Shown: one piece after another, positions 6,086 through 55,230 of the stretch
How positions within the stretch are numbered: the first letter of the stretch is position 1
Layout: every line of letters begins with the position of its first letter
From: an uncultured delta proteobacterium
GTDB lineage: Bacteria; Desulfobacterota; Desulfomonilia; UBA1062
Reading direction: 5' to 3'
DNA: 64,000 nt
Assembly (NCBI GenBank): GCA_963752595.1
Contig: CAVVYZ010000002.1
Span: forward strand, 64,001-128,000
The notes under the pieces: generated by a model
Database searches by the model: none
Seen by the model: the letters and a program-made list of their open reading frames with translations, nothing else
Told to the model about the DNA's origin: nothing
Made by a program: the position numbers and the translations under genes

Positions 6086-6193
6086 CTACTTGCTGGGGTA
6101 GGGGTGGGAAGCCTTCCGGGAGAAGCGCGCTACGAAACGCAGGCCAATACCCGCAAAGGCCAAAGAGCCGATGGTTATGAAAAGCAGTGTCAT
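6086..6193 (-). CDS. 35-aa single-TM microprotein (cassette copy 1)
   Basis: MTLLFITIGSLAFAGIGLRFVARFSRKASHPYPSK. TAATG overlap with the upstream gene; a paralog of identical length lies at 13562-13669. Confidence 0.75.
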   Translation of the reverse strand: MTLLFITIGSLAFAGIGLRFVARFSRKASHPYPSK

Positions 6194-6429
6194 TAGCGCG
6201 CCCTCCTCTCGATGATGACCTCCTGGATAAAACCCTTGAAGCCGAGCACGATGCCGATGATGAGCAGGAGCAACGTGAAGTTGGGGGCCATGCCGGTTAC
6301 CTTGTCGAGCCAGAGTCCTGCATAGAGGCCCAGGTAGGTCATGACCACGAGCACGATGCTGTAGCCGCTGATCCTGGTGAGCCTGTTTGCCAGTGCCCTG
6401 GGGATTCTTTCTTTTCTTGCCTTTTTCAT
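6193..6429 (-). CDS. AtpZ/AtpI-like (ATPase gene 1 family) two-TM small membrane protein
   Basis: 78 aa with 'GLYAGLWLDKVTGMAPNFTLLLLIIGIVLGF', the G..LD......P...L..G..G pattern of that family; AGGAGG RBS. Confidence 0.75.
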   Translation of the reverse strand: MKKARKERIPRALANRLTRISGYSIVLVVMTYLGLYAGLWLDKVTGMAPNFTLLLLIIGIVLGFKGFIQEVIIERRAR

Positions 6430-6460: not shown

Positions 6461-6637
6461 CTAGAAAAGCCTCATGATCAGTTCTCTTGCCGGTGCGGTA
6501 TTGATTCCCACCAGGGCTACCATGAGAATGAATACTGCGGTAGCTTCGGCAGCGGTGATTCCCAGCACCTTATAAGTGAACCTGATCCCGATCCCGGTCA
6601 TGAACAAGCATCCGATTACGATCCAAAGGGTCAGCAT
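6461..6637 (-). CDS. 58-aa two-TM microprotein (cassette copy 1)
   Basis: Below the ORF-track cutoff: MLTLWIVIGCLFMTGIGIRFTYKVLGITAAEATAVFILMVALVGINTAPARELIMRLF. AGGAGG RBS; paralog at 13683-13859 with mostly synonymous or conservative changes. Confidence 0.85.
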   Translation of the reverse strand: MLTLWIVIGCLFMTGIGIRFTYKVLGITAAEATAVFILMVALVGINTAPARELIMRLF

Positions 6638-6681: not shown

Positions 6682-6697
6682 ATCAAGGGCCGTGCCA
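6682..6697 (-). promoter_or_regulatory. Sigma54 (-24/-12) promoter, cassette copy 1
   Basis: TGGCACGGCCCTTGAT on the minus strand (GG-N10-GA variant). An IHF-like TATCAGTTAGTTG lies at 6713-6725. Confidence 0.7.
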
Positions 6698-6761
6698 ACC
6701 GTTAAATGTTAACAACTAACTGATATTTAAAGACAATATAAATCAACTTGAAACCGGAGAT

Positions 6762-6857
6762 TGACAGTTTGGCACCAGGGGCTCATTTCAGCACCTCTGC
6801 TTTGACAAACTGGCAAAATGATCTTGAATCCGATTTCTTCCCAATGACAGTTTGGCA
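6762..6857. promoter_or_regulatory. Three phased TGACA-N3-TGGCA boxes (putative enhancer-binding-protein UAS)
   Basis: TGACAGTTTGGCA 6762, TGACAAACTGGCA 6803, TGACAGTTTGGCA 6845; spacing 41 and 42 bp. Confidence 0.7.
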
Positions 6858-6868
6858 TATACCTTGCC

Positions 6869-8264
6869 CTATCGGGCATTGGTCAGCCTGATATGAACTC
6901 CCATGTCCTCGTAGGCAACCAGCCGCGATTGAAAGCTGCTCTTGAGAATGCCGTTCTCATCCACGTAATCGTAGATTATTGCCTCGTGCTTGCCTTCGGA
7001 TACCCGCAGGATGCGGCCTATGTACTGCTTCACCCTCCCGGTGAACTTGATGGGCGTTGCAAGGAAGATGGAGGTGAGCTCCTTGAGGTCGAACCCCTCG
7101 CCGATGAGCTGGGCCGTGGCAACGAGGATATGGTCACGGGTATTGTTCAGCTTTTCGATGAGCTCGGCTCGCTGGTTCGTGGGCATTGAGCCGGTGAGGA
7201 GCGATACGGATGAGCCCTTGGAGGCGATCATCCGGTAGAGCTCCTCGCAGTGCGCCACACGGTCCGAGATCACCAGCGCGATGCCGTTCTCGCCCGAGTT
7301 GGTGCGCTCGACCACGTCGCTTGCGATGAGTGCGTTTCTCTTCTTGTCCGCTATCAGGGCCGAGATCATGGACTGGTATTCATCGGAATCGAAGTAGTAT
7401 GCACATTTCGTATTCCTAACCTTGAGCGTCGCTCTCATGATCTTCTCGATATCCTGGAGCTGGCGCGGCTGTATCCGGTGGAGACGGTCGCCGAGGTGAA
7501 AGTAGATGATCCTGGTGAGCTTGTCGCGGCGGTACGGCGTTGCGGACAGGCCGAGCATGAACGCGGTGTCGAGCTTGCCGGCAACCTCGGTAAAGGAGCG
7601 GGCAGGGACATGATGACATTCATCCACGATCAGGTGGCCGATTAACGGTTTGACCTCGTCAATGACTTTGAAGAGCGAATTGATGATCGCAATGGTAAGC
7701 TTTCTGCCTGTCTGCTTTTTTCCGTCTCCGACCAGCCCCACCTCATCTTCGGTGATATCCAGGAATTCGACCGCGCGCTTGAGCCACTGGTACATGAGCT
7801 CCTTGGTGTGGACGACCACGAGGGCAGGCTGAGCCCTGCGGGCAATGATATTCAGGGCAATCACCGTCTTCCCGGCTCCCGGAGGCGCTTCGAGCACGCC
7901 GAACCTTCGGGCGGTGAGGTCTCTGACTGCCTGGACCTGGTAGGGATGAAGCGTTGCCCGGAAGTCGAAAGTCACCGGATCGAGCATCCGGGTGCGGTCT
8001 ACGAGCATGTAGGGGGAGGGAGCCATTCTGCTCAGCAGGTGGTTGATATACCCGCGGGGAAGGATAAGGACGCCGTTTTCCCTCTCGTAGTAATCGAGCA
8101 TCTCGGGCTGGAAGTTGCGCCTTCTGCTCCTTTTGTATTTCTCCACCTGCTCCCACTTCGGGTTCGGGCAGGGTGAGATCTGCTTCAATGCGTTTGATGA
8201 CTTCCGGTGCAAGATCCGCCTCGAGCACCCTGACGGCGTTGTCTATGTGGATAACTGCTTCCAT
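6869..8264 (-). CDS. SF2 DEAD/DEAH-box helicase (ResIII/RAD25-like); one frameshift near 8170
   Basis: 'APPGAGKT', 'DECHH', 'LSATP', 'GEGFD', 'QYIGRILR'. N-terminus MEAVIHIDNAVRV...EADLTL from 8264 joins 'PNPKW' after a 1-nt shift. Confidence 0.85.
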
Positions 8265-8292
8265 TGCTGTGTTGCCTTTACAAATAAGACGA

Positions 8293-8865
8293 TCAGATGA
8301 CGCTTTTAAGGTCGTCGATGAGTCCGGCTGCCTCGTCTTTGCTCAATTCGATCCGCACCTTGCCGCCCCCGGGATGTGCAAAGGCGAGACGGATCTCCGA
8401 GCCGTCCTTCTCAACCGTCCATCTCCTGCCTTTGGGCATTTTCACCTTTGGCGAGAGCCAGTCGTCCGCCTCGAATTCAGCGATCTGGATGAGCACGCCG
8501 AAGGCATCTCTCGGATGGATGAAAAGCTCTTTCCAGATGGGGCCGTAGTCATTGAACCCGAAATAGGGGACATTGTTCTTTTCCAGGGTCTTTTTCGCCT
8601 CGTAGATATCGGGGGTCTGCATGGTGATGTGGTGGACGCCTCCCTGCTTGCTGCTCAGAAAGCCGTCGAGGAAGCTTCCGTCCCCGGTGGGGGTAAGGAG
8701 CTCGAACCTGCTCAAGTCGCCCAGCGCCATATTTTGCCAGAGATATTTCATGCTGCCGTCATCTGCATACGTGCCGGGCACGGCGCCGAGAAGCGTGGTG
8801 AAGAAGCTCAATGCCTTGTCATAGTCTCTTACTGCAAGAGCGACATGGTCGATTCGTGAGATCAT
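8293..8865 (-). CDS. VOC-family protein (methylmalonyl-CoA epimerase-like) with C-terminal extension
   Basis: 'RIDHVALAVRD', 'ELLTP', 'GGVHHI', 'FIHPRDAFGVLIQIAE'. Confidence 0.85.
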   Translation of the reverse strand: MISRIDHVALAVRDYDKALSFFTTLLGAVPGTYADDGSMKYLWQNMALGDLSRFELLTPTGDGSFLDGFLSSKQGGVHHITMQTPDIYEAKKTLEKNNVPYFGFNDYGPIWKELFIHPRDAFGVLIQIAEFEADDWLSPKVKMPKGRRWTVEKDGSEIRLAFAHPGGGKVRIELSKDEAAGLIDDLKSVI

Positions 8866-8979
8866 AAAGAACCACCTCTGATACAGTATGGCATATGTTC
8901 GTATAAGAAAGCTCCGTGGTTCGTCAATCGTTTTATCCGTGAGTCGGGGAAGCCTGCTCCGCCGGGGAAAGGACGTGTA

Positions 8980-10323
8980 TTATACATGCCCCTGCGGAGA
9001 AGGAAGCTGAAGCTCTGCACAGGGTTTCCCCTTATCAGCCGCGCCCCGGCAAGCTACCATGCCATTGATACCTTTGTCCTTGTGGGTGAAATCGATTGCC
9101 ATGATGTCCCGTGTCCTCCTCACGACTCGGCCCCGGGCCATGACATACCCTTCCTTGCCGTCTCCCGAGAGGTTGATGCTGAGATACCTGCCTTTCGGAC
9201 AGGGGTGTGCAGTGGAGAGCAGCAGCCCGTTTTCGCTGATATCGATCAGGCGCCCCGTCGTCTCCGATGCATCTCCCTGGGCTTTATATACCACATCGAT
9301 GAGAAGCGGATACCTCCGGGACTTTCGTCTCTCCTGGATGCTCCAGGCCATCCGGATAGAATCGATCTCTTCTTTTATGGCATCGCCGATCGGTGTATAT
9401 GCCATCCCCAGCTCCTTCTGCGACCTGCTGCCGTCTGCCATGAGGCTGTTCTGCAAGGTCATAAGATATTCGGGAGACATTCCCTGGAATGGAGGCCTGT
9501 TCAGGACCCTCGCCACTAGGGCGGAAGCGCCGGCCACGAACATGGCCAGAGAGTCGGGCAGGATTACCCTGGCAGTTTTGGATCCTATGACCTCTGATAC
9601 GGCTGCCAACAGGCGGCGTGTGGATATGCGTTCATGGGCAATGAAGTAACGTTTGCCCACAGCGCCGTCGAGGGTTAGGACCCTTGAAATAGCCTCTGCC
9701 ACATCCTGGACATGGATATAGGTATGGGCCGAATTCATCGATGACCTGGAAAAGAGCGAGTAGCTCATGATCCTTCTGACGGGGGATATGCGGTTTCTGT
9801 TTCTCCCCGGCCCGAGGACCACGGCCGGATAGCATACCGTCAGCGGAAGGCCCTTCTTGTAATGAAGGACCCATGCGATCCGCTCAGCCTCATATTTGCT
9901 CCGGGCCAGTTCGCTGAACCGCTGCGGCCCGATCGTGCTCTCCTCGTTGAACTTGGCCTGTGCCGGTTTGCCGTAGACATACAGCGGGCTCACATGGATC
10001 ACCCGGGAAATACCCGTCTCCAGAGCGCACTCCATGACGTTTCGTGTGCCGTTCACATTGACCTCGGCATAAATCTTTTTATGGGACTCCCAGAAGGATG
10101 ATGTTCCTGCCAGGTGGATAAGGGCTTCACATCCCGACATCCCGGGGAGAATGGTTTTTCTGTCTCTCACATCTCCCCAGACAAGATCGACGTCGAGTTT
10201 TTCCAACTCCTGAATATGGCTTGTCTTCCTGACGAGGCACACCAGTTGGTGGCCTTGCTTGACCAGGAGCCTCGCGGCATGGGTGCCTATGAAGCCCGTA
10301 GCGCCTGTGATAAAGATTTTCAT
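8980..10323 (-). CDS. NAD-dependent epimerase/dehydratase (HpnA-like extended SDR) fused to a C-terminal PilZ domain
   Basis: 'ITGATGFIG', 'NVNGTRNV'; C-terminal 'ERRKSRR...DISENG' match the PilZ RxxxR and DxSxxG motifs. Confidence 0.85.
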   Translation of the reverse strand: MKIFITGATGFIGTHAARLLVKQGHQLVCLVRKTSHIQELEKLDVDLVWGDVRDRKTILPGMSGCEALIHLAGTSSFWESHKKIYAEVNVNGTRNVMECALETGISRVIHVSPLYVYGKPAQAKFNEESTIGPQRFSELARSKYEAERIAWVLHYKKGLPLTVCYPAVVLGPGRNRNRISPVRRIMSYSLFSRSSMNSAHTYIHVQDVAEAISRVLTLDGAVGKRYFIAHERISTRRLLAAVSEVIGSKTARVILPDSLAMFVAGASALVARVLNRPPFQGMSPEYLMTLQNSLMADGSRSQKELGMAYTPIGDAIKEEIDSIRMAWSIQERRKSRRYPLLIDVVYKAQGDASETTGRLIDISENGLLLSTAHPCPKGRYLSINLSGDGKEGYVMARGRVVRRTRDIMAIDFTHKDKGINGMVACRGAADKGKPCAELQLPSPQGHV

Positions 10324-10528
10324 CCGATCCCTCCAAACAATGAAATTAAAACAATTCAGCGAGAGATCTTCCCCTGCGGAAGCCCCTCTGCACAGGGTGA
10401 CTGCCGGGAAAGAACTGTCTTAATAATATCATACTATGAAGAAAAATCAAGGGCTTGAATATTATTTCAGCCAGATGGAGGGATTTTCAAGGACAGATCA
10501 AAGAGAGGTTTCTGCCGGTGCGAATTGA

Positions 10529-10811
10529 TCACACCTCAACCGACATCCCGTCTCATACGCACATTCGAACTCGATGGATCCGCACCGCTGAAGCATGGAA
10601 TCTCCCAGATGGGTGAGAATTAATTTTTTGCAATCGGGTTCACGGCGGTGTTCCATGAGGGTGAGGTAGTTGAGGTGATTGCCGGCATATCTCTCGTATT
10701 CGAAGGTCTCGCAGATGAAGAGGTCGCAAGGATGCTGCTCCGGAGCCTGCCGCCGCTTCCGAATGCATCCCCGGAACCGAGAAACAGGACCTTGACAGAA
10801 CCCGCATCCAT
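10529..10811 (-). pseudogene. MBL-fold metallohydrolase remnant with large internal deletion
   Basis: N-terminus 'VLFLGSGDAFGSGGR' joins out of frame to C-terminal 'DLFICETF...HLNY...KLILTHLG'; the HxHxDH core is absent. Confidence 0.7.
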
Positions 10812-10815
10812 GGCT

Positions 10816-13227
10816 CTAGAAAACCTTCTTGAGCGCGTCCTTCAGCTCTTCGGCGGTATAGGGCTTGGCGACGGCACCACTGAAGCCGAATTCCCGGTAG
10901 TTCTCCAGGAGGTTCTCTTCTGCGTAGCCGCTCGACACAATGCCGATCACTCCCGGATCTATCTCCTTGAGCTTCTTCATGGTCTCGGCACCGCCCATGC
11001 CGTTATCGACCGTAAGGTCGAGAATCACTACGTCGAAGGAGCGGCCGGAGCGTTTTGCCTCGATAAACTTCTCGATGGCCTCCTCGCCGTTTTTCGATGA
11101 CTCCACCTGGTACCCCAGGTGCTCAAGGATCTCGGAAGCAGCGTCCCTGATCATCTCTTCGTCGTCCATGGTGAGGATGGACTCCCGGGAGGCGCTTGCA
11201 TGAGGTTGAGCAGCCTCTTCCATCCCCGTTTCCTTAATGCTTGCCGGCAGGTAGATGCTGAATACGCTCCCTGAACCGACATTTGACTCCACAACGATAT
11301 AGCCGCCATGCTTCTTTATGATGGAATAGGCGGTCGTCAGCCCGAGCCCCATTCCTTTCTGTGTGCCTTTGCCCTTGGTCGAAAAGTAAGGATCGAAGAT
11401 CTTATCCTTGATTTCTTCAGGGATTCCTGTCCCCTGATCACGGATGTCGATGACCACATACGGGCCTTGTTTTACGAATTTCGGATGTTCGGTGTTGTCC
11501 TGGCCGATGGTGGTATTTTTTGCGGCTATGGTGATCCGTCCGTCCCCATGCATGGCTTCCCTGGCATTCATGATGATGTTATGGAAGGCATGCATGATCT
11601 GATTCTGGTCGAATTCGACCATCCAGAGGCCGTCCGGAATATCGTACATGCAGGTGATATGCGTTCCCGAGAGTGCGAGATTTACCGCATCCGAAACGAG
11701 CGGCACCAGGGGGGCATTTTTCTTGTTCGAGAGCCCGCCCTTAGCGAGGGTCAGGAACTGCCTGATGAGATCACGGGAACGGGTACATGCCTCGATGGCC
11801 TTTACCAGCCTTTTATTTGCAGGATGATCCTGGGTAATGTGGAACTGCGCAAGCTCGATGTTGCCCAGAATCGTTGCGAGGAGATTATTGAAATCATGGG
11901 CGATGCCGCCGGCAAGCGTGCTGATGGATTCGAGCTTGCTCACCTTGATGTTCTCCTCTTCCTTTATCTTGCGATCCGTAATGTCGCGGGAAACGGCAGC
12001 CACACCCGAGACGGAGCCGTCCGGCTCAAAGAACGGATAATAGCTCAGGAGGCTGTACCGGCTCCCCCATCCCGGATAGTCGAACCATTCTTCATGATGG
12101 ATCTCTTTCCCTTCAAGGGCATTGTCCAGGTGTTTCTTCATCTTTCCGTCGAATACGTCCGGGCCGACGATTTCCGCGACGCTTCGCCCGATGAAATCCT
12201 TGCGCGTTTTGTTGAATGCGGAGAGATAGGCGTCATTGACTGCCTGGAATATATAATTTCCGTCGATGAAGGACATGGGGTTGTGGACCGTGGCGATGAT
12301 GAGTTCATACTTGTGCAGCAGTTCCTCTGCCTTGGTCCTGTTGATAACATCGCCGATCCTTCCTGCGACCGTCTCCAGGGCAATCCTCGAAGTAACGGGA
12401 ATCTTGTCGAAGTCGCGGGAGATCAGGCTTAAAGAAGCTATTACGGAGCCTTCGGATTTTATGGGGATGATCGCAACCCCCCGGATATCATCCGGCGGGA
12501 GTGAAACCCGGAACCTCTTCGAGGCTTCCTGATTGCTCCAGTACAGGGGACGACCCTCTCTGATGAGGAGTACCTGAGGGGACCAGGCATCAAGGTGGGT
12601 CAGGGGTTTCACGAGATTGTCGGGCATGCCCTTCTGTACGACAAGGTCCATTCCCCCTGTGCGTTCCTGGAGTATATAGACACCCCCTGCATCGACTCCC
12701 TCCACCGCCAGGACCGCATCCAGGATGCGGGAAAGCAGCTCGCGAAGCTCCAGGGAAGAGCTCAGGACAAGGCCCAGATCGCGCTGGAAGCGAAGCAGGT
12801 CTTCTATCTGTTTGTGAGGGGTAATGTCCCGGGCAAGGATGGCTATCTCTTCGGGCCTTCTGCCTTCCTGGGAGACCGGATAGAGCATGATGTCATACCA
12901 TATCTGATCCTGTTTATATTCGAACTGCAGGGACTCACCGGAAGAGAACACCTTTTCGGCCTGTTCTTTCCTGAATTGCGATGAATCCGGAGGAAAGTAG
13001 TTCCAGAGACAGGTTCCGATGAATTCCTCATGGTGTATGCCGAGATAGCTTGAGACAACCTCGTTTGCATCCTGAACCGTTCCCTGTTCGTCGATGAGGA
13101 TGAAGAAATCTGTCTGAGCATCGAGGATTGCCCGGATGACGCCGAGATTATGCCGCATCTTGCTGTTTTCCGTTTGCAGTTCCCTGAGATGGTTCTCGGA
13201 ATCTCCCCGGGCTGCTTTTTCAAACAT
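10816..13227 (-). CDS. Cytoplasmic hybrid sensor histidine kinase (PAS-GAF-PAS-HisKA-HATPase-REC)
   Basis: 'AGGIAHDFNNLL', 'NIIMNAREA', 'DQGTGI', 'FDPYFSTK', 'GLGL', REC 'MDDE...ILDLT...KPY'. ATG 13227 follows AGGAG. Confidence 0.92.
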   Translation of the reverse strand: MFEKAARGDSENHLRELQTENSKMRHNLGVIRAILDAQTDFFILIDEQGTVQDANEVVSSYLGIHHEEFIGTCLWNYFPPDSSQFRKEQAEKVFSSGESLQFEYKQDQIWYDIMLYPVSQEGRRPEEIAILARDITPHKQIEDLLRFQRDLGLVLSSSLELRELLSRILDAVLAVEGVDAGGVYILQERTGGMDLVVQKGMPDNLVKPLTHLDAWSPQVLLIREGRPLYWSNQEASKRFRVSLPPDDIRGVAIIPIKSEGSVIASLSLISRDFDKIPVTSRIALETVAGRIGDVINRTKAEELLHKYELIIATVHNPMSFIDGNYIFQAVNDAYLSAFNKTRKDFIGRSVAEIVGPDVFDGKMKKHLDNALEGKEIHHEEWFDYPGWGSRYSLLSYYPFFEPDGSVSGVAAVSRDITDRKIKEEENIKVSKLESISTLAGGIAHDFNNLLATILGNIELAQFHITQDHPANKRLVKAIEACTRSRDLIRQFLTLAKGGLSNKKNAPLVPLVSDAVNLALSGTHITCMYDIPDGLWMVEFDQNQIMHAFHNIIMNAREAMHGDGRITIAAKNTTIGQDNTEHPKFVKQGPYVVIDIRDQGTGIPEEIKDKIFDPYFSTKGKGTQKGMGLGLTTAYSIIKKHGGYIVVESNVGSGSVFSIYLPASIKETGMEEAAQPHASASRESILTMDDEEMIRDAASEILEHLGYQVESSKNGEEAIEKFIEAKRSGRSFDVVILDLTVDNGMGGAETMKKLKEIDPGVIGIVSSGYAEENLLENYREFGFSGAVAKPYTAEELKDALKKVF

Positions 13228-13341
13228 GAACCGCTCTCCTTTTATGATCCTCACACACAGTTATGACGTATGTATGAGAGATTATCTCTGATGTGTCAAT
13301 ATCACATATCATAGAGCCTGTTCATGCTGTTTCAAACAGAT

Positions 13342-13367
13342 TATTCCCGGCAGCCCGGCTTTAGGGG
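13342..13367 (+). repeat. Imperfect direct repeat, left copy (flanks cassette copy 2)
   Basis: TATTCCCGGCAGCCCGGCTTTAGGGG; 23/26 identical to 14130-14155. Confidence 0.65.
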
Positions 13368-13561
13368 TCGCCCTTTTTCCCTCTCGCGACTCGCTTGCGG
13401 GTGCCCCGGGGGGAGAATACAGGAGAGGGGGTAAATGCTGATGCCGGCTTCAGGCAGAGGACGCCGATAGAAGAGAGGTCCAAGGAATAAAAATATGGAA
13501 AAGCGGCCCCGGAAGATGCCATATCCCCAAGGACCGCGAATGGTTGTTTTGCCGGGAAGGA

Positions 13562-13669
13562 CTATTTTACCCTGTCGGCGACAGGTTCTTTGAAAAGCAC
13601 TCTGGCGGCAAACCTGTATCCGATTCCGATGAAAGATACGATGCCGATGATGGTGAATATGAGTGTCAT
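13562..13669 (-). CDS. 35-aa single-TM microprotein (cassette copy 2)
   Basis: MTLIFTIIGIVSFIGIGYRFAARVLFKEPVADRVK; AGGAG/AAGGA RBS; paralog of 6086-6193. Confidence 0.75.
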   Translation of the reverse strand: MTLIFTIIGIVSFIGIGYRFAARVLFKEPVADRVK

Positions 13670-13682
13670 GGTCCTTTTCTCC

Positions 13683-13859
13683 TTAAAACATCTGGGCAAT
13701 CATTTGTCTTGCCGGCCCGGAATTGATGCCTATCAGCATAACGATAAGTATGAATACGGCGGTTGCCTCGGCAGGGGTGAGCCCCAGAACTTTGTACGTA
13801 AACCTGATCCCGATCCCTGTCATGAACAAGCATCCGATAATAATCCAAAGGGTAACCAT
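13683..13859 (-). CDS. 58-aa two-TM microprotein (cassette copy 2)
   Basis: MVTLWIIIGCLFMTGIGIRFTYKVLGLTPAEATAVFILIVMLIGINSGPARQMIAQMF; GAGGAG RBS; paralog of 6461-6637. Confidence 0.85.
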   Translation of the reverse strand: MVTLWIIIGCLFMTGIGIRFTYKVLGLTPAEATAVFILIVMLIGINSGPARQMIAQMF

Positions 13860-13898
13860 CTTCTATCTCCTCTCATGTGTTTATGCGTCCTCACATTG

Positions 13899-13914
13899 AG
13901 CAAGGAGAATGCCA
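13899..13914 (-). promoter_or_regulatory. Sigma54 (-24/-12) promoter, cassette copy 2
   Basis: TGGCATTCTCCTTGCT on the minus strand; canonical GG-N10-GC. Confidence 0.8.
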
Positions 13915-13977
13915 GGTGACCATCATTTGTAACTTAATGAAAATTAAAGATAAATAAACATTGCAGAAAATGATGAA

Positions 13978-14071
13978 TGACAAATTGACAATATGGGATC
14001 AAATTACTTCGAGGTTTTTGTCAAGTTGGCAAAAATACGGAGTGCAGCCTGAAATATGTGACAACTTGGCA
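13978..14071. promoter_or_regulatory. Three phased TGnCA-N3-TGnCA boxes (putative UAS)
   Basis: TGACAAATTGACA 13978, TGTCAAGTTGGCA 14019, TGACAACTTGGCA 14059; spacing 41 and 40 bp. Confidence 0.7.
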
Positions 14072-42435: not shown

Positions 42436-43740
42436 ATGAAGGTTGAGATATCAGATGTGGGCAGCACACAGTAAAGAGATGACGGTGGTCGTTCCCAAGC
42501 AAGAGGTGAACGATGTAACAAATGAGGTTTACAAGGACATTTCCCAGAAAGTGATCATCCGGGGCTTCCGGAAAGGCAAGGCTCCGAGAAATATCGTCAA
42601 GATGTACTATGAAGACTACATCAAGACCGAGCTTTCCAAGAAGCTTGTCCAGGAGAAATTCGAGCAGGCGGCAAAAGAAAAAGAGCTCTTTATCGTTTCC
42701 ATGCCGGAGATCACGAACGAACCGCCTCAGGAAAACCAGGATTTTACCTTCACTGCCCGGTTCGATGTGAAGCCTGCCATCACCCCGCAGAAATATACCG
42801 GTCTTTCATTGAAGAAGCCCAAGATCGACGTGGGTGATCAGAATATTCAGGATGTTCTGACCAGGCTCCAGGAAACCTATGCATCCATCCAGGATATTGA
42901 AGATAAAGAGTATCAGGCAGGCAAGGGGGATTATGCCATCGTGGACGTAGTGAGTGAAGAGAATCCCAAACTCAATCGCTCCAAGATGACTGTTGAGGCC
43001 GGGGTAAGAAGCGCCATCCCCGGATTGGACAATGCGGCGCTGGGAATGCATCCCGGCGAGGAGAAGGATGTCGAGGTTACCTTCCCCGAAGACCATTTCA
43101 TGGAAGACATGCGGGGAAGAACGCGAAGGTGAAGGTCAAGGTTGAGGCCATCAAGCAAAGGGAGCTCCCCGAACTCGAACGACGAGTTCGCCAAGACGGC
43201 CCGCCAGGACGTCGGAAGCCTCGACGAGCTCAAAGAGACCATCCGCAAGGACCTTGTGGAGCGCCTCGAGGCCGAAGCCGGAGTTCATCTGGAAAAACAG
43301 ATCAGTGAGCAGCTTATGAAAGAGAATCCATTCGATGTGCCCGAATCCATGGTGAAGCTCCAGGCAGCCATGATGATCCAGGGGATGTCCCAGAGACTGT
43401 CTTCTCAGGGATTCAAGATGGAGGACCTGTATCCCGATACCGACAGCCTCCGGGAAGAGACCATGTCTTCTGCGGAAAACCTCGTGAAGACATCGCTTTT
43501 GATCGAGGCCATCGCAAAAGAGCATGGATTCGAAGCGACGTGAAGAGGATGTTGATGAAGAGATACAGAAACTTGCTCGAGCGGTACAATATGACTCCGG
43601 AATTAGTGAAACAGGGAATGGAGGAACGGGGATGCCTCGAAGAAATCAAGTTTGGTATTGTCGAGAAGAAGGTTTATAATTACATTATAGACAATTCCAC
43701 GGTTGAGGAAGTCGAACAGATACAGGAGAAAGAAGAATGA
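42436..43740 (+). CDS. tig: Trigger factor (about three frameshifts, likely assembly errors)
   Basis: MKVEI start; 'GFRKGKAP' ribosome-binding motif; 'VTFPED'; 'DEFAK'; precedes clpP-clpX-lon. Confidence 0.88.
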
Positions 43741-44363
43741 CGCTGGTTCCGATCGTAGTTGAGCAGACGAATAGAGGAGAGCGATCGTACGATATTTACT
43801 CCCGTTTGCTCAAGGACAGGATTGTAATGCTGAGCAATGAAGTCCACGATGAAATAGCCAGTCTCCTGGTTGCGCAGTTCCTCTTTCTTGAATCCGAGGA
43901 CCCTGATAAGGATATTTACTTCTACATCAATTCTCCCGGAGGGTCCGTGACTGCAGGCATGGCCGTATATGACACCATGCAGTACATAAGACCGAACGTG
44001 AGCACCATATGCATCGGGCAGGCGGCCTCCATGGCTGCGGTACTCCTCGCCGCCGGTGCCCCCGGTATGCGATATGCGCTTCCCCACTCCAGGATCTGAT
44101 TCACCAGCCGCTTGGCGGGGTTCAGGGTCAGGTAACGGATGTGAGCATTCAGGCCCAGGAGATGCTGCGGCTCAAGGATGAGCTGAACAAGATCTTGTCG
44201 CACCATACCAAGCAGCCGATAGAGAAGATAGTCAAAGGATACGGACAGGGACTTTTTTATGACTGCCCAAGATGCGGTAACATATGGTATAACCGATCAT
44301 GTAATATTCAAGAGACCCTCCAAGGAGACACAAGAGGAGAGCATCGATGCCAAAAATAAATGA
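43737..44363 (+). CDS. clpP: ATP-dependent Clp protease proteolytic subunit (frameshifted near 44097 and 44235)
   Basis: '[15 protein letters not shown]', 'YINSPGGS', 'GQAASM'; 'IHQPLGG' lies in the next frame. Confidence 0.9.
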
Positions 44364-55214: not shown

Positions 55215-55230
55215 TGGCATGCATTTTGAG
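55215..55230 (+). promoter_or_regulatory. Sigma54-like promoter for the FN3 protein
   Basis: TGGCATGCATTTTGAG (first 12 nt identical to the site at 15334) after an AT-rich tract. Confidence 0.5.

Follow-up and report, generated by a model that had tools for sequence, protein, structure and literature searches.

The AtoS/AtoC and CrbS/CrbR two-component systems control genes for the activation of short-chain fatty acids or acetate. AtoC is a sigma54 activator, with a site and targets that differ from those described below, and CrbR is a LuxR-type regulator. Substrate sensing by syntrophic fatty-acid oxidisers is poorly described. A sigma54 promoter cannot fire without an activator (PMC4641369), and three dimers of NorR have been proposed to build a hexamer at the norVW promoter of Escherichia coli (PMC2831303). 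A 64,000-nucleotide stretch of an uncultured member of the Desulfobacterota (the window; positions 64,001 to 128,000 of contig CAVVYZ010000002.1, assembly GCA_963752595.1) carries two sets of three 13-bp boxes, 76–77 bp upstream of a sigma54 promoter. The organism belongs to the UBA1062 lineage of Desulfomonilia, which includes Candidatus Phosphitivorax (bioRxiv 2020.12.28.424620). The two sets are likely to be an enhancer for the response regulator encoded at C13:170441-171790, which would switch on a cassette of very small genes when a dCache kinase senses short-chain fatty acids.

The motif TGNCA-N3-TGNCA occurs exactly six times in the window, against an expectation of 1.13 ± 1.07, and none of 100 shuffles reached six. 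The six boxes are near-palindromes arranged as two triples with 40–42 bp between successive boxes (Table 1), and the spacings given in an earlier, sequence-only reading of this DNA, namely 41 and 42 bp in copy 1 and 41 and 40 bp in copy 2, are borne out. The consensus proposed there, TG(A/T)CA-N3-TG(G/A)CA, holds as a reading of the plus strand; both triples lie upstream of minus-strand promoters, however, and on the transcribed strand and in relatives the consensus is TG(A/C/T)CA-N3-TG(T>G,A)CA instead. The IHF-like site that had been noted between the boxes and the promoter of copy 1 is present when the minus strand is read. The promoter of copy 1 precedes three genes, A, B and C, and that of copy 2 precedes A and C only. 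A sigma54-like site at 6853-6868 on the plus strand overlaps the distal box of copy 1 in the opposite orientation; it is found in no relative and is therefore likely a chance match.

A weight-matrix scan of the 4.12-Mb genome, with a matrix built without this genome's own sites, found three triples, namely the two window copies and one at C1:236034, all before a copy of gene A. The same scan found no triple in five shuffles, and with a matrix including this genome's sites three of 450 block shuffles gave one triple and none gave more. Among 74 extracted copies of gene A, 66 orthologous or paralogous promoters were scored, each anchored on its -24/-12 site; the remaining eight were dropped, namely five truncated where a contig ends, a second copy in tandem, a copy whose promoter escaped the pattern and the paralogue that has no promoter. 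The boxes and their spacing are kept in all 66 promoters while the intervening DNA diverges. The spacings are 40–43 and 41–44 bp from box to box and 73–78 bp from the proximal box to the -24 element, a spread that is bounded because each box was picked as the best match in a window of 9–15 bp around its expected place. TG, CA and TG are invariant in the distal and middle boxes of every promoter (66/66). By sequence match, an IHF-like site lies in 48 of the 66 spacers versus 6.3 in shuffles, and in 41 spacers it is placed at -27/-28. A fixed triple pattern was found in 36 of 40 family genomes, its reversed control in none; gene A was found in 33 of 36 family genomes and in none of 24 genomes of the other family in the class. 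Over 401 genomes of the phylum, the strict triple is confined to this genome, five of six family genomes and only four others (G062, G107, G257 and G395). The lineage in which the layout recurs is the UBA1062/Candidatus Phosphitivorax family. The boxes are almost certainly an enhancer to which an activator is predicted to bind; the sigma54 promoters downstream, the positioned IHF-like site, the conservation and a single linked activator all support the earlier suggestion of a candidate NtrC-family activator motif.

A fourth paralogue of gene A in this genome, at C22:157023, has neither the boxes nor the promoter, reflecting either promoter loss or misassembly. By eye, this copy follows a tRNA-like sequence, and a copy in G004 (L040) with the same neighbour has the full enhancer.

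Published expression data for a relative, Candidatus P. anaerolimi F81, bear on the conditions under which the cassette is used. Two F81 genes labelled 'putative F0F1-ATPase subunit' have 0–1 reads before feeding, and 1 h after feeding they are induced 28.8- and 28.1-fold by acetate, 419- and 336-fold by propionate and 114- and 130-fold by butyrate, with controls at 1.2 and 1.0 (Hao et al. 2020, PMC7082340). The acsM gene of F81 rises 2.6-, 451- and 664-fold in the same order of acids, and the passages of that study that were consulted do not discuss the two genes (PMC7082340). Both match gene 2 of DCDF01000095.1, a gene B that immediately follows a gene A, at 66% and 75% identity, within the range of gene B (54–100%) and far above the sister gene B' (29–31%). 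The genes just before them match the A copies of DCDF01000095.1 at 94.9% and 96.6%, and both cassettes of DCDF01000095.1 carry the triple box.

The sequence-only reading had placed the activator gene outside the window. In agreement with this, none of the 55 window open reading frames contains a sigma54-activator domain, and none of the 30 PF00158 matches of the genome falls inside the window. The genome has about 20 sigma54 activators, and seven groups recur across the family, four of which were set aside by neighbourhood or resemblance (flagellar, lpxC/NtrY, polysaccharide and nitrogen). The 1.5–3 kb of flanking DNA retrieved with the cassettes contained no activator gene, and a look at the surroundings of activator genes gave no clear autoregulatory boxes. 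The candidate at C13:170441-171790 is a response regulator with a GAFTGA loop and a helix-turn-helix (HTH) domain, and its orthologue has the architecture REC-AAA-HTH_8. Its HTH domain is present in 36 of 40 family genomes, the gene being cut by a contig end in G023, and in 48 of 401 phylum genomes, including three of the four non-family genomes with a strict triple (G062, G107 and G257). In other families the motif is linked to the regulator gene itself: 23 loci were fetched, of which one ended at the gene and two were not parsed, and in 13 of the 20 scorable loci a strong box follows the gene at a distance of no more than 600 bp; a strict sigma54 promoter accompanies it in 11 of these 13. 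A box is likewise present behind the gene in both unparsed loci. In control loci, such a box lies behind 4 of 86 assorted activators, one of the four being of the same type. Of the 43 genomes in the carrier set, made up of G017, G395 and 41 carriers from outside the family, 13 have double boxes 40–44 bp apart; among 43 non-carriers picked by hand the number is 3. In a quick tree that left out frameshifted activators, the regulators fall into one clade (SH-like approximate likelihood ratio test support 98), to which this genome contributes a single member. Boxed promoters in other families precede acs, the electron transfer flavoprotein (ETF) genes etfBA with a CCG/Fe-S membrane oxidoreductase, small receiver-domain genes, and genes for a 94-amino-acid membrane peptide, a multiheme cytochrome and a Hox-like hydrogenase. 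Taken together, it is very probable that the predicted activator acting at the boxes is the C13:170441-171790 regulator.

It would be rather surprising if the boxes were a sigma54 enhancer bound by some other activator, such as the orphan regulator C9:150649, the QseF-like C13:169073 or one missing from the 84%-complete assembly. The two named proteins are both conserved in the family, the orphan HTH domain being present in six of six family genomes and in none of seven sister-family genomes, and G395, a 100% complete genome in about 100 contigs, has the cassette and the boxes while no orthologue of the C13:170441 regulator was found in it (best match 50%). However, the orphan regulator was found in none of the four non-family genomes with a triple, no box lies behind its gene in 28 loci, and double boxes are absent from five genomes in which it occurs.

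Encoded together with the C13:170441 regulator are a dCache_1-PAS histidine kinase and, between kinase and regulator, a 354-amino-acid protein that has no Pfam match. In the kinase's membrane-proximal module, Trp-177, His-188 and Lys-245 are kept in 12 of 12 sequences and Tyr-175 in 9 of 12. These putative pocket residues are spaced like the carboxylate contacts of PscD and of the receptor structure 9HVJ, a match by spacing and not by structure, and there is a weak sequence match to 9HVJ (E = 0.0025). The signal is probably a short-chain fatty acid or its immediate product, as predicted from these residues and from the F81 response.

A kinase that senses another cue, such as pH, a metabolite or envelope or energy stress, with fatty acids acting only indirectly through the same activator and boxes, is an improbable alternative. 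Direct and indirect effects are inseparable in community incubations, the distal dCache module has no assignment, and the 354-amino-acid protein has no Pfam match; moreover, the kinase of one family has sCache_3 instead, and the regulator of another family precedes unrelated genes. Against this, induction from a near-zero baseline is seen one hour after acid addition with flat controls (PMC7082340), the pocket residues are kept, and the targets elsewhere are acetate-activation and ETF genes.

Much less probable is that the boxes are operators of a factor unrelated to sigma54 or a functionless by-product of duplication, as might be supposed because duplicated cassettes hold two of the three triples, at a distance of 7 kb from each other, and because TGGCA half-sites resemble the -24 element. 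The boxes stay fixed while the spacers diverge across genera, they keep a constant distance to the -24 element and to the IHF-like site, and a sigma54 promoter needs an activator to fire (PMC4641369). A nitric oxide-responsive enhancer of NorR type with three GT-N7-AC sites can hardly be entertained, since, for all the likeness to norVW in three sites, IHF and sigma54 (PMC2831303) and although TGTCA-N3-TGACA would contain GT-N7-AC, just 12, 22 and 16 of 66 boxes keep the T of GT, the A of AC being found in 3, 5 and 5, the targets are small membrane peptides and not nitric oxide-detoxifying genes, and the two NifA-like activators of this genome adjoin nitrogen genes.

Gene A has no match in Pfam or NCBIfam. 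It is protein-coding, with entropies of 0.61, 0.28 and 1.43 at codon positions 1, 2 and 3 over 70 copies, and its product is modelled as a helical hairpin with a short third helix (predicted local distance difference test score 79.5). A search of the ESM Atlas with gene A gave only unnamed clusters at the top, with recognition below threshold, and a profile search against 1.84 billion representatives gave 16 matches, 14 of them family-like and two unrelated long repeat proteins. By rough patterns, gene B follows gene A in 48 and gene C in 50 of the 67 copies with enough DNA. Peptide C (6086-6193 and 13562-13669) resembles the first helix of A by eye (T-L...IG...GIG.RF) and is possibly a truncated paralogue of it. 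A reading of the transcript as a CsrA-sponge RNA was rejected, as GGA motifs are not kept and glycine codons vary freely in 70 genes. The G|LTPAE stretch of gene A recalls Flp or type IV pilins; this was set aside by eye because the N-terminal part of gene A is a predicted hydrophobic helix.

These observations lead to a likely model for the enhancer and the C13:170441-171790 regulator. A short-chain carboxylate would bind the membrane-proximal pocket of the kinase, which would then phosphorylate the regulator. Dimers of the regulator on three boxes on the same face of the DNA, 3.8–4.2 helical turns apart, may assemble an AAA+ ring, and IHF may loop this ring onto the sigma54-polymerase, resulting in an off-to-on burst of A, B and C.

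Several points weigh against this model. The requirement for all three boxes is its least secure element: of the three, the middle one is the most degenerate, and in other families two strong boxes 68–92 bp apart, with a weak box between them or none, often occur with the same activator clade. None of seven family loci has a box behind the regulator gene, and so the link to the activator rests on other families, where 7 of the 20 scorable loci have no strong adjacent box, only 13 of the 43 carrier-set genomes have double boxes, and the genomes are kin from about five families, so that the counts overstate independence. In addition to the case of G395, G017 has the regulator, and neither gene A nor the boxes were found in it. 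In the present genome, neither a box nor a sigma54 promoter stands before acs and etfBA. This assembly breaks the kinase gene in two, one part lying on C11, with the dCache domain at C11:8507 onward, and the other on C13. The second pocket tyrosine of the kinase is a phenylalanine, and three kinases have no first tyrosine. The F81 read counts are low (0–1 at baseline and 0–7 with acetate), and they come from a mixed sludge in which acids interconvert and from a relative of this genome (PMC7082340). The box status of the F81 cassettes was read from DCDF01000095.1. A fold search of one structure library with the gene A model gave no match at E ≤ 0.001, and a relationship of gene A to the ATP synthase c-subunit was rejected at an hhalign probability of 4.7%.

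A sister module consists of a 91-amino-acid protein A', with a signal peptide and an A-like hairpin, and an AtpZ-like protein B', encoded behind their own dCache kinase and sigma54 activator. Its upstream motif is TTGAACGTTTCWTT-like and differs from the triple box. An orphan ATP synthase c gene adjoins the module in a back-to-back arrangement and has a sigma54 promoter in G018; A' is also found in four other families, mostly in several copies. Since gene B is AtpZ-like and the sister module shares its locus with the orphan c gene, we tentatively suggest that A, B and C might come together as a small complex in the membrane and adjust ion flux or the assembly of ATP-synthase Fo during fatty-acid oxidation. 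It is somewhat less plausible that the peptides do something else; they are unlikely to be a carboxylate permease and still less likely to exert feedback on the kinase. There is also a speculative possibility, which we regard as doubtful, that an undescribed fatty-acid-sensing sigma54 system of the Desulfobacterota, controlling acs and ETF genes elsewhere, was rewired in the Phosphitivorax lineage to the multicopy micro-membrane-protein operon only, which together with A'/B' and the orphan c gene would retune the ATP synthase or the membrane ion balance.

Table 1. Coordinates of the boxes, promoters, cassette genes and sister-module loci. Positions are those of the window unless a contig is given; box and IHF-like sequences are written on the transcribed (minus) strand.
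Feature	Position	Strand	Description
Copy 1 distal box	6845..6857	-	TGCCAAACTGTCA
Copy 1 middle box	6803..6815	-	TGCCAGTTTGTCA
Copy 1 proximal box	6762..6774	-	TGCCAAACTGTCA; 77 bp before the -24 element
IHF-like site, copy 1	6713..6725	-	Sequence match, TATCAGTTAGTTG
Sigma54 -24/-12 promoter, copy 1	6682..6697	-	TGGCAC-N5-TTGAT
Gene A1	6461..6637	-	58-aa (amino-acid) helical-hairpin membrane peptide
Gene B	6193..6429	-	78-aa AtpZ/AtpQ-like protein; PF09527 score 44.4 bits (cut-off 26.6)
Gene C1	6086..6193	-	35-aa peptide with one hydrophobic stretch; start overlaps the stop of B
Copy 2 distal box	14059..14071	-	TGCCAAGTTGTCA
Copy 2 middle box	14019..14031	-	TGCCAACTTGACA
Copy 2 proximal box	13978..13990	-	TGTCAATTTGTCA; 76 bp before the -24 element
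IHF-like site, copy 2	13930..13942	-	Weaker, two mismatches
Sigma54 -24/-12 promoter, copy 2	13899..13914	-	TGGCAT-N5-TTGCT
Gene A2	13683..13859	-	58-aa paralogue, 76% identical to A1
Gene C2	13562..13669	-	35-aa peptide; copy 2 has no gene B
Sister module loci	G000 C17:307341-313094, C5:119220-120716; G018 C32 (L224, L419)		

Other features were noted in and around these loci. In four genomes of the genus, copy 2 is followed by a gene for a PAS-GAF-PAS hybrid kinase (10816-13254, minus strand). A sigma54-like promoter at 55215-55229 on the plus strand, with AT-rich upstream DNA, lies at the start of an open reading frame for a fibronectin-III protein. The palindrome ATGAAT-N4-ATTCAT, similar to a TetR operator of the FadR/YsiA type, occurs inside the third enhancer (C1:236090) and before an acs-tetR-beta-oxidation-etf operon (C19:119418); the genome has seven exact copies, and with up to one mismatch the palindrome is found in 6 of 69 promoters versus 51 of 3000 random windows. 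Genes for proteins of 94–103 amino acids in a different family (L316:12197-12478, L318:11548-11829 and L322:12293-12601) stand behind the 13-bp enhancer box and a sigma54-type promoter, next to acs and a gene for an MFS transporter; the proteins have a likely signal peptide and one membrane helix, and the two that were scanned have no Pfam match. Many frameshifts and duplicated or split segments are seen in this assembly (C9, C11, C13, C14, C17, C22 and window positions 42443-44099); several activators, acs and the kinase operon are frameshifted or split, and trigger factor is in two open reading frames, which points to assembly errors.

The enhancer mechanism itself is textbook knowledge; the regulator, the motif assignment and the fatty-acid link are new here for the cassette. 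A literature search, with most subscription papers outside its coverage, found no description of the motif, of sigma54 control in Phosphitivorax or of combined sigma54, Cache and acs control. The analysis names a kinase, an activator, a 13-bp motif and a target promoter, all of which can be tested in vitro or in E. coli. A further outcome is a set of unannotated micro-proteins whose genes are strongly induced by fatty acids and which the published study, as far as the passages and supplement consulted go, lists only as ATPase subunits in the supplement (PMC7082340). The motif permits regulon prediction in several uncultured families, and a promoter with tight on/off behavior could become a volatile-fatty-acid reporter for digesters. 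If the rewiring proposed above were true, the cassette would be part of a substrate-triggered energy-conservation switch of syntrophs.

The closest architecture is that of the E. coli NorR enhancer at norVW, which likewise combines three dyad sites with a CA-N3-TG-type core, an IHF site and a sigma54 promoter (PMC2831303). NorR has a GAF-iron sensor for nitric oxide and nitric oxide-detoxifying targets (PMC2831303), whereas in the present system GT-N7-AC is not kept, the linked activator has a receiver domain and is paired with a dCache kinase, and the targets differ. The Desulfovibrio regulons of the bacterial enhancer-binding proteins DVU1949, DVU2394, DVU3334 and DVU2827 are similar in being small, dedicated sigma54 regulons of the same phylum with CA-N3/4-TG palindromes (PMC4641369). 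Compared by eye, TGHCA-N3-TGDCA equals none of these motifs: that of DVU1949, which belongs to a nitrogen regulon, has a 4-bp spacer in place of 3 bp, that of DVU2394 has an extra outer TG and a variable inner G, and that of DVU3334 has TTACA halves (PMC4641369). The putative kinase pocket resembles those of PscD, Adeh_3718 and the proximal module of dCache_1UR A4 (PDB code: 9HVJ) in the pattern Y-x-W...H...Y/F...K with matching spacing (PMC5062169, PMC12415202). These three are chemoreceptors, whereas here the domain belongs to a kinase that feeds a sigma54 activator, the second tyrosine is replaced by phenylalanine and carboxylate binding is predicted. Finally, gene B passes the PF09527 cut-off and is thus like AtpZ of Bacillus pseudofirmus OF4 and AtpQ of N-ATPases (PMC4453477). 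Unlike these, it sits outside any atp operon, is multicopy, is paired with two peptides and is under predicted sigma54 control; separate operon copies are present in the genome.

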